Source: Octopus sinensis (lineage: Eukaryota). Taken from it: 50,987 nucleotides of DNA. The notes beneath the pieces were generated by a model, which worked only from the letters and a program-made list of their open reading frames with translations, ran no database searches and was not told the DNA's origin. Position numbers and translations under genes: made by a program. The stretch spans positions 1-50,987 of the forward strand of contig NW_021834332.1 in the NCBI RefSeq assembly GCF_006345805.1. The letters run 5' to 3'. This document shows, one piece after another, positions 6,247 to 48,614 of the stretch (position 1 is its first letter; every line of letters starts with the position of its first letter).

Positions 6247-6354
6247 CTGTTTGTTCCGGTGGTCGTAACGGGGTCTTCGTTGCCTGATACCTCCGTTGTC
6301 ATTTCCATTTCCAAAGTAGAAGTCTGATTCCAATCACCACCTTGAGAACCATTG
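6247..6354 (-). CDS. Repeat exon M1, 108 nt, phase 2-2: (S)NGSQGGDWNQTSTLEMEMTTEVSGNEDPVTTTGTN(S/R)
   Basis: ttccag|CAATGG...AAACAG|gtaatg; only this frame is stop-free; one of 16 paralogues. Confidence 0.75.
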
Positions 6355-7099
6355 CTGGAACGAATAGATATATATATACATGTATGAATGAAAGCGCACG
6401 TGTGCATGCATGCATGTATGTATGTATGTATGTATGTATGTATGTATGCATGTATGCATGCATGTATGTATGTATGTATGTATGTATGTATGTTTGTATG
6501 TATGTATGTATGTATGTATGTATGTATGTGTGTATGTATGTGTGTCTATGTATGTATGTATGTATGTATGAATGTATGTATTAATGTATGTATGTATGTA
6601 TGAATGTATGTATGTATGCATGATGTATGTATGTATGTATGTTGTCTATGTATGTATGTATGTATGTATGAATGTATGTATTAATGTATGTATGTATGTA
6701 TGTATGAATGTTTGTATGTATGCATGTATGTATGTATGTATGTATGTATGTATGTATGTATGTATGTATGTATGCATGTATGTGTGTGTATGTATGATTG
6801 TATGTATGTATGTATATATGAATGTATTATGTATGTATATATGTATGTATGTATGTATGTATGTATGCATGTATGTATGTATGCATGTATGTATGTATGT
6901 ATGATGTATGTTATATATGTAGTATGTATAGTATGTATGTATGCACGCATGCTGTATGTGTATGTAGTATGTATGTATGGATGTATGTATGTATGTATGT
7001 AGTATGTATGTATGTTGTATGTATGTATGCAGTATGATGTATGCATGTATGTATGTCTATCTGAATGCATATAAACTTGTACCTTTTACGTATTTCAGC

Positions 7100-9215
7100 A
7101 ATGTTGATTGCTTGATGACAATCAACATTATGAAAAAATCACACAACTACACCCCGCAAAAAATGAAAACTCTATCGTCACTAATTAAAACCCATGGAAA
7201 GGAATAACAACCAAGAGATTGACTTTCTAACAATCTTTAAAAGCAAGCCTAGCCTCTTCTATGGTCTGCCAAAAATACATAAAAGCCAAATTATAAATGA
7301 AACCATTAAAAAATCACCAAAGACATACACACAACCCTACCGGGGGACCTAAAACTACGACCCATTGTAGCTGGCCCAATCTGTGAAACCACAGATTAAG
7401 TCTTTTTATGGACATCCTCCTGAAACCCTTCCTTAAACATATCGATAGTCATATCAGAGATGACTTGGATCTGTTTAAACACACTTCGAAAAAAAGTCAA
7501 GGAAGAAACAATCATGGTTTCATTTTATGTAGTTAATTTTATACCAGTATACCTCATAATTATGGACTAGAGGCAATACAGTTCTGGCTGGACCAATTTC
7601 CGGAAGAAATACCAAAAAGGATCAGTAAAGAATTCATTACTAAATCGGTTGAATTCATCCTACGTAATAACCACTTCATGTTTGACAATACATTTTACCG
7701 TCAAAAATCCGGAATTGCTATGGGTACAAGGGCAGCACCAGTCATTGCGAACCTAACAATGGGCTACCTGGAAATAATTGTTTAGCAGGAATCTTTATCG
7801 ACCTTTGGAAACCCCCTCTCTCAATACATAAAAGAGAATTGGAAACGATTCCTGGAAGATTGTTTTATACTCTGGAATGAAAACACAGATAAACTCCTAA
7901 AATTCAAAAACCTATTGAACAGCATCAACCCAAATATACAGTTCACAATGGAATACAACCAAAAGAGTTCCATTCTTAGATATACTAATTAAAAAAATTA
8001 CCTTAAAATAGAAACAGACATTTTTTACAAAGCCACAGAGGCTAAACAATACCTACTTTTTGATTCATGCCACCCAAGACACACTAAAACAAATATCCCC
8101 TTCAACCTTGCAAGAAGGATATGAACAATAGTGTCAGAACAAAATACAGGAACTTTAGACTACAAGAACTCAACAAAAACACCCTAATTGACAGACATTA
8201 CCCAGCTTCAACTCATAGAGGATGGGATCAGACGGTGCAACAGAATCGACATAGAAACTTTGAGAAAAGTTAAACACAACAACACACCTTCCCCGAAAAT
8301 ACTTCCTTACATAACCACATACAATCCCAGAAACAAAGAAGCCTTCACCATCATCACCCAGAATTTACCAATACTTCATAAGGACCCCAAATTAAAGGAA
8401 ATTCTAAACATACATAAAATCATTAAAAGCTACAAACAACCTAAATCACTTAAAAAGATTCTCACAAAGGCAAAATTGTTTTCTGAAATTACGGATGCAA
8501 AAGTAAAAAAATGTGGTAGACCAAACTGCGCAACATGCCCAACCTTCTAGAAGGATCAGAATTCCTCTTCAAAGAGGGACAAAAATTCAAGATCAAATCT
8601 AATTTTACTTGTGCTTCTGAAAACATAATTTATGTCATAAGATGCTCGGGCTGCCACCAAAACTACGTGGGATCCACGGGACTATCACTCAGACGTAGAT
8701 GCACACTGCATCGACAACAGATTGCATTCCCAGAATACAGAATGATACCCTTTAGTGAGCATATTGAGAAATGCGCAAAGCAACTACTACCACAATTTTT
8801 AATCTTCCATTTTATCAATGTGCTATTGGAACACCAACTCAAATTAGACTAAACAACGAAACATTCTTCATTGAAAAATATAAGCCCAAACTTAACCACT
8901 CTAACATTCTTATACAGAGAAACTCACCCCATTAAATAAAAGTGAGAAGAAATATAAAGCGATTACCTCCCTTACACCGGAAGAAATCACTTATTACCTC
9001 CCCTTACCTGGAACTCTTCTTTACACTTCATAACGAAGACATAACATGATTTTTTGAGAAATTTAAAAAGTTAACAAGAAACCGGTAATTTCTTCAAAAA
9101 CTATGTCACTGTATGCAAAAATTTTATAACATTCTTCTGACATAATGACTCAAATATATTTTTTAACCTTTTAAAACAAGCCTTCAGTAGTTTTTTCACT
9201 TTTTACTATTTTCTA
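7100..9215 (+). mobile_element. 5'-truncated, decayed Penelope-like retroelement (RT + GIY-YIG endonuclease)
   Basis: Frameshifted motifs FYGLPKIHK, LRPIVAG, GIAMGT, KRFLEDCF, YLLFDSCHP, CGRPNCATC, IIYVIRC..NYVGST; 3' boundary approximate. Confidence 0.9.
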
Positions 9216-9407
9216 TACATATATATATATATATATATATATTTTGCACCCCCCCATATATATATATATACATGTATGTATATATATATATATATACATA
9301 CACACACACACACACACACACACACACACATATATATCTTTTTCTGTGCCCTTAAGGTATTGCAAAGGGAGGTCATCCTTCCCTCGTCAACCTAAGTGAT
9401 AAACACG

Positions 9408-46051: not shown

Positions 46052-46159
46052 CTGTTTGTTTCCTGGGTCGTAACGGCGTCTTCGTTGTCTGATACCTTCG
46101 TTGTCATTTCCATTTCCATAGTGAAAGTGTGATTCCAATCTCCACCTTGAGAACCATTG
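46052..46159 (-). CDS. Repeat exon M15, 108 nt (copy of M5)
   Basis: AG/GT intact; open frame. Confidence 0.72.
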
Positions 46160-48506
46160 CTGGAACGAATAGATATATATACATGTATGAATGAAAGCCC
46201 TCGTGTGTATGCATTTATGTGTGTGTATGTATGTATGTATGTATGTATGTATGTATGTATGTATGTATGTAGGTAGGTAGGTATTATGTATACATATGTA
46301 TATATTATATATGTATGTATGTATGTATGTAATGTATTTTGTATGTATGTATATATGTCTGTAAGACATGTATCTATGTATGTTTGTATGTATGTATGTC
46401 TGTATGTATGCATATATGTATGTATGTTTGTATATATGTATGTATGTATGACACGTATATATGTATGTACGTATGTATGTATGTACGTATGTATGTATGT
46501 ATTATATGTATGTATGTATGTATGTATGTCTGTATGTATGTATGTATGCATGTATATGTATGTATGTATATATGTATGTATGTATGTATGTATGTATGTA
46601 TGTATGACACGTATATATGTATGTATGTATGTATGTATGTATGTATGTATGTATGTATGTATGTATGACACGTATATATGTATGTATGTATGTATGTATG
46701 TATGTATGTATGTATATGTATGTATTATGTATGACACGTATATATGTATGTATGTATGTATGTATGTATGTATGTATGTATGTATGACACGATATATGTA
46801 TGTATGTATGTATGTATGTATGTATGTATTGTATGTATGTATGTATGACACGTAATATGTATGTATATATGTATGTATGTATGTATGTATGTATGTATAT
46901 GTATGTATGTATGTATGACACGTATATAGTATGTATGTATGTATGTATGTATGTATGTATGTACGTATGTATGTATGTAATCTTTATGTATGTATGTAAG
47001 TATGTATGTATGCATGTATGTCTGGATGCATATAAACTTTATACCTTTTACTTGTTTCAGTAATTTCAAGGCTTCTTTTATTGAAGGGTTTTTTTAATCG
47101 AATAAATCGAATTCAGGACTTTTTTCGGGGTAAACCACACATGTATAACCATATATATATACGCATGTCTATTGTACACACACATACACACACACACACA
47201 CAGACACACACACACACACACACACGCGCGCGCAACCATACACACACAATACAGACGAGGTTGAACCAGAAAGCAATGTGACCGAAATTAGTTTTTGGCT
47301 CATCTTGGTTTACTCAAAGCTGAGTCAAAAACTGATGCAAATATAAACGGCATTATTTTCTGATTCATTCGCGTGTATTCATGTGAGCGTATATATCTAT
47401 ATGTATATGTATATAAGAGAAGGTGTGAGATTTGTGATTTGAGTATTCGGTTAACGATCGTAAAGTTGCGTGTTCGATTCCCGGGTGTCAAATCTTCACT
47501 TGGTGTCAAAAATGAGTTGTAACTATATTTCGATGAGCCAGCCTTGTCACACACTGTTTCACGCTGAATCTCTCTGAGAATTACGTGAAGATTCCACCTG
47601 TCTATGGAGAGCTCTGCCACCTAATCGTTATTTTGAAGAGGAAGCTATTCCGTTGAACGTATTAACTGGAATCCTGAACGTCGTAACCGACAGTGTTACA
47701 GTTTAGATAAATAAGTGGATGTAAGTGTTGTGAGTGGGTGCGGGTGCGTGAGTGTGTCTGTGTGTACTAACATACACACTGCCCACCCGCACGTATACAC
47801 CACACATGCACACTAATATATATATATAATATATAATATATATATATATATATTATATATAATATTATATTATTATATATATATATACATATACATATTG
47901 CATATATATACTATATATATATATATATATACATGTATGTATATATATATATATATATATACATATAATATGCATAATATACATATATATATATATACAT
48001 GTATGTATATATATATATATATATATATATATATATATACATATACATATGCATATATATGCATATATATATATATATAATATATATATATATATATATA
48101 TATATATAATATCTTTTTCTACATATCTATCTATCCATCCATCTATGTATGTATATATATATATATATATATATATATATATATTATATATATATATAAT
48201 AGAACATATTTGTGTATAATCTACTTGTGCGATATATACATAGGAACGCTAACGATAGATTTGAAATTGCATTGATACAGACAGAGCACATGTTGAATGT
48301 TTTGACGGAAGATTTATAAATCTATAAATTTATAAATAACAGGCACACAATTCTGTCAGATTTTGATAAAATATTGCCTGATTTCATTGAAATGGATCTT
48401 TAAATCTGACACACCCTTGTATTTTTATTGAACAAGATTATGACAACCAAGTCTCAATAAATTAACGTAATGTCACTATGGTTAACTTTAATGTGGTTAA
48501 AAGTAC

Positions 48507-48614
48507 CTGTTTGTTTCCTGGGTCGTAAGGGGGTCTTCGTTGTTTGATACCTTCGTTGTCATTTCCATTTCCATAGTGGAAGTGTGATTCCAATCACTAC
48601 CATGAGAAGCATTA
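48507..48614 (-). CDS. Repeat exon M16, 108 nt (copy of M6)
   Basis: AG/GT intact; open frame. Confidence 0.72.

Follow-up and report, generated by a model that had tools for sequence, protein, structure and literature searches.

Exon cassettes arrayed on an unplaced Octopus sinensis contig probably extend the tail of a PAN-domain gene

The DNA analysed here, a stretch of 50,987 nucleotides (nt) from Octopus sinensis (the window; NW_021834332.1), is an entire unplaced contig, C10803, of a 2.7-Gb genome. On its minus strand, between positions 6247 and 48614, lie 16 short exon-like cassettes, each with an acceptor TATTCGTT(T/C)CAG on one side and a donor CAG|GTA on the other. These cassettes, and a PAN-domain gene on the 72-Mb contig C13 that carries the same element (gene C), are the subject of this text. 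The original prediction described 16 exons of 108 nt; the number of cassettes stands, but only 13 measure 108 nt, two being 105 and one 104 nt long. The splice borders and the 15 of 16 lengths that are multiples of 3 were recovered as described, and a second, exon-internal motif found the same 16 cassettes without use of the splice motif. The introns between them are 1.0-3.5 kb long, with one of 10.1 kb, and contain (ATGT)n and other microsatellites together with broken mobile elements.

Numbered in gene order along the minus strand, cassettes 1 to 6 represent types a to f in turn (48507..48614, 46052..46159, 44521..44628, 42492..42599, 38941..39048 and 35985..36092), are all 108 nt long and are open, the first being in phase 2-2. 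Cassette 7 (type c, 34833..34936, 104 nt) has three private deletions that shift the frame. The 34-35 kb bin around it differs from its sister block by 34 substitutions and 11 indels in 536 unmasked nt, and such noisy surroundings point either to a consensus error or to a dead copy. Cassette 8 (type d', 32840..32944, 105 nt) has lost 3 nt in frame and is open, as are cassettes 9 (type d, 31261..31368) and 10 (type e', 27668..27775), both of 108 nt. Further left follow five open cassettes of 108 nt, namely 11 (type a, 17434..17541, sister of 1), 12 (type b, 14983..15090, sister of 2), 13 (type c'', 13454..13561), 15 (type d, 9846..9953, sister of 4 and 9) and 16 (type e', 6247..6354, sister of 10), and one of 105 nt, likewise open, cassette 14 (type d', 11441..11545, sister of 8). 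At the donors of types c and d, 15 nt between two GTAA motifs are deleted, so that the start of the intron is lost and a GTAA donor still stands at the exon end; microhomology alone can account for this.

The offset-1 frame contains no stop in any of the 15 in-frame cassettes, which together encode 538 amino acids (aa), fewer than the roughly 570 first estimated, with 30 N-glycosylation sequons. The remaining two frames are interrupted in 14/16 and 15/16 cassettes. The contrast between one open frame and two closed ones is real but was given too much weight: the off-frame stops go back to one shared ancestor (the exons diverge by 11% on average) and are therefore weak evidence, not 16 independent observations. 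Over the copies on all contigs, AG/GT borders are present in 26/26 and a length divisible by 3 in 24/26. Judged by their sequence, the cassettes have the structure of a symmetric exon-per-repeat array, with AG/GT borders, equal phase on both sides and lengths that are multiples of 3.

A DNA search with one cassette returned at least 25 matches on three contigs, 16 in the window, seven on contig C13439 and two on C13, genome-wide counts that are lower bounds. A scan with the acceptor motif added an eighth cassette on C13439 (position 4936), which is divergent, 78 nt long and contains an in-frame TAG. The two copies on C13, the sole chromosome-scale ones, are followed after 560 nt by a 100-N gap (12444773). 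An exon upstream of them encodes a PAN domain whose only database match is Octopus bimaculoides LOC106871881, and from there gene C could be assembled (C13 12418378-12444212): its nine exons, all with AG/GT borders, join into a single open frame of 430 aa, and the last of them is a cassette. Its product is 66% identical to the O. bimaculoides model P0002 over 394 aa.

In gene C, exons 7, 8 and 9 (the first cassette) each leave the reading frame in phase 2. Because the upstream chain ends in phase 2, the reading frame of the cassettes is fixed from outside the array, which independently confirms the phase 2-2 frame originally proposed; it is also the frame used for exon 8 in the RefSeq models P0002 and P0003. 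Exon 8, likewise 108 nt long, has cassette-like sequence around its acceptor and donor, and its identity to the 20 other 108-nt cassettes is 69-74%. Its length, splice context and identity therefore suggest that the cassette descends from exon 8. The idea of an octopus gene with one exon per repeat is supported. The array looks like a C-terminal tail, however, and not like the internal repeat region first envisaged. The window and C13439 would fill the C13 gap behind gene C, which would place two orphan contigs in a chromosome gap. Based on these comparisons, the cassettes are probably tandem copies of gene C exon 8, likely filling this gap and splicing in phase 2 into the long, acidic and probably heavily glycosylated tail of a predicted secreted PAN/EGF/sushi-like protein.

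Neighbouring paralogs are informative here. Mapping the O. bimaculoides protein on 300 kb of C13 located four genes, A to D. Gene A (minus strand) is represented by exons 1-4; its assembled part breaks off at a gap (12339760), and no exons 5-8 were detected for it. Gene B (plus strand) is complete, gene C (plus strand) runs into its gap, and gene D (minus strand) is complete. Genes A (12340352-12356121) and B (12369426-12386719) form a near-identical, head-to-head inverted pair over exons 1-4. B and D, the neighbours, correspond to RefSeq models P0003 and P0005 (labelled Octopus sinensis; LOC115218571 and LOC118765760). The proteins of B, D and O. bimaculoides all end in a low-complexity serine/threonine (S/T) and acidic tail encoded by exon 8. 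In gene B this terminal exon (C13:12402951-12403170) holds an internal 7-aa acidic tandem repeat and the protein stops there, while paralog D and the O. bimaculoides model have a single short tail, which in the latter may be short just in the gene model. With these unexpanded and differently expanded paralogs beside it for comparison, gene C shows steps from an ordinary tail exon to a tandem exon array. At exon 3 of gene C (acceptor region C13:12426828-12426846), the AG of paralog B reads TG and a new AG, in place of AA in B, lies 9 nt upstream; this shift of the acceptor by three codons has left the frame intact, a sign that gene C is maintained. The RefSeq O. bimaculoides gene has two isoforms that differ by 35 aa in exon 3; such isoform pairs usually reflect transcript data, which in this case say nothing about the cassettes.

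The splice sites of the cassettes are under selection. Nine of the last 10 acceptor positions are invariant in 26/26 copies, the free one being the -4 site, as is the donor GTA, whereas 134 of 276 columns of flanking intron are invariant (in an alignment of 23 copies that excludes exon 8, the 78-nt cassette and a further copy with a replaced flank). Selection on the reading frame is moderately supported. Only one indel common to at least two copies lies in the exon, and it is 3 nt long, against 15 in 315 intron columns, 11 of these having lengths indivisible by 3 (p 0.039); across 15 distinct gap-free copies, the 56 column variants include none that creates a stop (p 0.058). Private indels are equally frequent in both (exon 6 in 108 columns, intron 17 in 315), and all six exonic ones fall in two copies, as would be seen if these two carried consensus errors or had died recently.

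Several observations weigh against a functional, gene C-encoded array. The p-values are modest, and some of the shared indels lie in block pairs that could be assembly duplicates. The ratio of non-synonymous to synonymous variation (pN/pS) is 1.26, with 11 synonymous and 45 non-synonymous variants where 12.5 synonymous ones would be expected by chance; the residues are without purifying selection, which fits a low-complexity spacer and equally relaxed selection. Exon divergence (11%) is little below that of the intron (15%). Among the 25 copies that measure 104-108 nt, two carry a frameshift (window 34936 and C13439 18040), and one unit lacks its cassette; if the broken copies are real, constitutive splicing would truncate the protein there. 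Neither the window nor C13439 overlaps in sequence with either side of the gap, gene C was not among the RefSeq models returned, and a profile of the repeat had no match at E 0.001 among 1.84 billion protein representatives.

Some of these points would be explained if the array were mostly passenger DNA, the protein ending at exon 8 or an early cassette by read-through into the intron and the later units being amplified too recently to have decayed. Read-through beyond any donor would meet a stop within 1-3 codons, AATAAA or ATTAAA occurs within 380 nt after the donor in 20 of 26 units, and the O. bimaculoides model continues for only about 45 aa once exon 8 has begun; the pN/pS of 1.26, the two frameshifted copies and the lost cassette agree with this. 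However, DNA of this kind is expected to contain AT-rich hexamers, and stops just past a phase-2 GTAA donor, by chance. Copies that are 11-15% apart have nevertheless kept 12 splice-site positions invariant in 26/26 while about half of the intron columns vary, and the exon lacks shared frameshifting indels; we regard the passenger reading as unlikely.

Alternatively, the exons could be real and each transcript could include a variable subset of them, because exons are skipped or polyadenylation comes early; tails would then form a ladder of lengths instead of a single long form. Symmetric phase 2-2 units skip freely, the broken copies would require skipping, and the introns are long (1.0-10.1 kb) and filled with repeats. 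There are also precedents: alternative splicing of the S/T/proline (S/T/P) exons of CD46 (PMC2118878) and polymorphism of the frog mucin FIM-C.1 through alternative splicing (PMC7177656). Acceptors and donors are all near-identical, though, so the sequence gives no basis for differential use, and private indels in the broken copies occur at the intron rate (6 in 108 against 17 in 315 columns), as for consensus errors; a ladder of this kind is quite unlikely. It is very unlikely that the array belongs to another gene copy, be it paralog A with its 3' half running into gap C13:12339760, an unassembled paralog or a second haplotype: gene A does show only exons 1-4 before its gap, the unplaced contigs do not overlap the gene C gap, and an e-then-f unit order shared by the window and C13439 is what alleles or paralogous blocks would have, but gene A is near-identical to gene B, whose exon 8 is terminal, a third set of exons 5-7 was not found in the genome (a lower bound), and the first true cassette is located in gene C. 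A dispersed transposable element as origin of the cassette, which would have undone the original prediction, was rejected, as its matches, at least 25, lie on only three contigs and only the intron segment from +90 to +280 is dispersed.

The left 20 kb of the window consist of two blocks that repeat its right part: 1..13887 recurs at 21442-35263 (98.6% identity) and 11123..19908 at 42193-50987 (97.5%). Against the 23-34 kb part of its sister, the first block shows 10 substitutions and 14 indels in 7970 unmasked nt. Such pairs are either very recent duplications or assembly duplicates, the latter being a serious possibility that we put somewhat below even. With a 2% divergence cut-off, the 16 window cassettes reduce to 10 lineages and the 23 aligned copies to 16; copy number is hence uncertain, and six window copies may be assembly duplicates. 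Block ends coincide with microsatellites, where alignments tend to stop anyway. Among the most divergent units, two (8521 and 4936) are of the last on C13439, and divergent end units would fit an array whose middle has been homogenised by unequal crossing-over.

Every cassette is accompanied by a conserved 3' intron flank of about 320 nt (for example 5925..6246, minus strand), in which the segment from +90 to +280 belongs to an old dispersed repeat with 73-77% identity on many contigs. One unit, 20640..21646, has no cassette and consists of (ATGT)n, an inverted 152-nt piece of this flank (20650-20801, 98% identical to C13439) and DNA resembling a long interspersed element, the result of either a rearrangement or an assembly chimera. 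A mariner-like element with matching terminal inverted repeats and a broken transposase frame lies at 17700-18990, with a sister at ~48.8-50.06 kb, inserted in the (TACA)n array upstream of the type-a cassettes. The stretches 18989-19671 and 50063-50745, once candidates for exon-less units, were rejected as such, being the type-a microsatellite split by this insertion. Broken retroelement frames at ~7.9-9.0, 29.2-30.4 and 39.9-41.7 kb occupy the intron between type d and type e units and were amplified with the blocks; by eye they look reverse-transcriptase-like and GIY-YIG-like, and we take them to be Penelope-type. On C13439, positions 1509-2237 hold a 243-aa frame with a CCHC zinc-knuckle-like motif, probably a fragment of a retroelement first open reading frame (ORF1).

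Sequencing runs were uninformative as to expression. No RNA data set was listed as containing window positions 31200-31420, which is no evidence either way. Over the C13 stretch from exon 7 to the first cassette, three of the five presumed RNA runs, X4, X7 and X8, had a depth of 0 in the cassette bin, but they were swamped by contigs of short interspersed elements and give no evidence on expression; the same holds for the absence of exon-linking read joints among those listed for this stretch. Run X3, which behaves as DNA of a related organism, had a summed depth of 59-83 over cassette and flank against about 10 in unique bins, which is not a copy number but hints that the relative also has several units. 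Aligning the family to proteins of 722-2060 aa yielded 0/3745 candidates, a weak test. Ten gene or protein identifiers were not found in the full-text literature searched, which leaves most subscription journals outside, nor was octopus in combination with PAN domain and sushi or with apple domain. The supplement of an octopus skin-mucus proteome (PMC10138644) contained 0/6 identifiers or terms and 0/6 family peptides.

The predicted product of gene C begins with an N-terminal signal peptide (judged by hydropathy), followed by a PAN domain, a short EGF-like exon, four phase 1-1 modules, a helical linker and the tail. PAN_1 (PF00024) in exon 1 scores 21.8 bits against a cutoff of 21.4 and matches 5/6 relatives; the EGF-like exon is recognised by eye from its cysteine pattern only. 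The first of the four modules, in exon 3, has four invariant Cys, a Pro and a Trp and looks like sushi, though with weak support. Its profile matched complement or factor XIII B chains in 7/7 hits among solved structures (best E 0.003), and features from the ESM Atlas also point to sushi. Pfam Sushi (PF00084) had no match in gene C or the relatives scanned, a model of exon 3 alone had a predicted local distance difference test (pLDDT) score of 64 with no match in a fold search (best Z 2.6), and the P0002 model (pLDDT 35) made its fold search uninformative. A fucolectin domain ahead of the tail was considered and dropped, having no Pfam match.

Of the signal peptide and transmembrane segment contemplated in the original prediction, only the former is predicted. 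Hydropathy shows an N-terminal hydrophobic stretch alone in gene C and 5/6 relatives (absent from P0003, which is N-terminally short), and after residue 40 no window exceeds 1.11 in the assembled part of gene C or the six relatives. Hydrophobic frames 3' of the last cassette lie in repeats or T-rich DNA, none shown as an exon. Since no transmembrane segment was found, the product is read as soluble. With all 23 open cassettes the tail would have 826 aa (S+T 30%, D+E 17%, K+R 3%, Pro 2.7%, Asn 12%, 0 Cys) and 42 sequons, each unit adding 36 aa and about two N-glycosylation sequons to a predicted head of about 330 aa with 27 Cys. The S/T-rich, acidic and mucin-like character originally proposed is borne out by this composition, but with Pro at 2.7% the tail is not a proline/threonine/serine (PTS) mucin. 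In types e and f a Ser-Gly pair precedes acidic residues, presumably resembling a glycosaminoglycan attachment site. The protein could accordingly be pictured as a soluble binding protein whose long, probably glycosylated and disordered tail acts as spacer or coat, a role that leans on tail composition and on general knowledge of such proteins.

A possible history begins with duplication of exon 8 together with its acceptor and donor. One copy, lying between a (TACA)n microsatellite upstream and a fragment of an old repeat downstream, would then have become a unit of 1-3.5 kb. Unequal crossing-over would have multiplied this unit, several units being copied together as a block. As each unit is phase 2-2 and a multiple of 3, gain, loss or skipping of units would leave the frame intact, and selection would maintain splice sites and frame but not residues. 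The resulting tail would be a hydrated spacer or coat component on a PAN/EGF/sushi-like binding head, and the last, divergent cassette of C13439 (4936, in-frame TAG) may terminate the protein. The missing two-thirds of an octopus protein, unseen in automatic annotation, would in this way be recovered; should this protein be expressed, it is a candidate constituent of octopus mucus, coat or matrix, from a locus likely to vary in copy number. Perhaps, in a more tentative and rather doubtful extension, an octopus-specific PAN/sushi-like secreted family is racing to lengthen its acidic tail exon by two routes, the internal 7-aa repeat of gene B and the at least 25 exon units of gene C, the latter being a length-variable, fast-evolving glycan brush shaped by copy-number change and exon skipping, mucin-like without proline but with N-glycans.

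The original prediction recognised no homologue. The repeat indeed is absent from the protein sets searched, but its host gene has homologues: LOC106871881 (XP_014774122/128, 'Apple domain-containing protein' in UniRef), LOC106871895, LOC115218571 and LOC118765760 belong to the family of gene C and have the same exon order. In databases the family exists solely as uncharacterised automatic models; these octopus RefSeq proteins of 260-412 aa have a short tail without the repeat, whereas in gene C the tail exon is multiplied. Beyond octopus, P0002 is best matched in its features by molluscan PAN/sushi proteins (0.91, 167/256 features; an ESM Atlas cluster of 87 members, PAN_1 87%, Sushi 68%), whose representative, of 184 aa, lacks a tail of this kind; with a feature count slightly below what same-family hits typically reach, the match is a lead only.

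Among better known systems, titin PEVK, tropoelastin, collagens and LPA kringle IV-2 shift in repeat number by gain or loss of symmetric exon units, with no sequence relation to the octopus array. In the frog mucin FIM-B.1, repeats likewise stand on separate exons. Like the predicted product of gene C, the Xenopus integumentary mucins FIM-B.1 and FIM-C.1 are secreted and combine cysteine-rich modules with polymorphic S/T-rich repeats; FIM-C.1 is polymorphic through alternative splicing, and FIM-B.1 has a short consensus repeat (SCR) (PMC7177656). FIM-B.1 has von Willebrand D (vWD) and FIM-C.1 trefoil domains, neither found in the octopus protein, whose repeat is proline-poor and rich in N-sequons. 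As Pfam scans of six family members and the scanned stretches of gene C, whose 3' end lies inside the gap, contained no vWD domain, the product would not be a gel-forming mucin of the MUC2/5/6/19 or FIM-B.1 type. CD46 (PMC2118878) comes close in design: its sushi (SCR) modules precede a glycosylated, S/T-rich region that is encoded by small separate exons, and the use of these exons alters protein size. It differs in its transmembrane anchor and short S/T/P region, whereas gene C has a PAN/EGF-like head, weakly supported sushi and at least 10 units per contig, and no anchor that would mark its product as a membrane mucin or CD46-type regulator was found; beyond the weak sushi match, no homology between the two is claimed. 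The octopus tail calls for no new mechanism, and its design is one already known in other animals.

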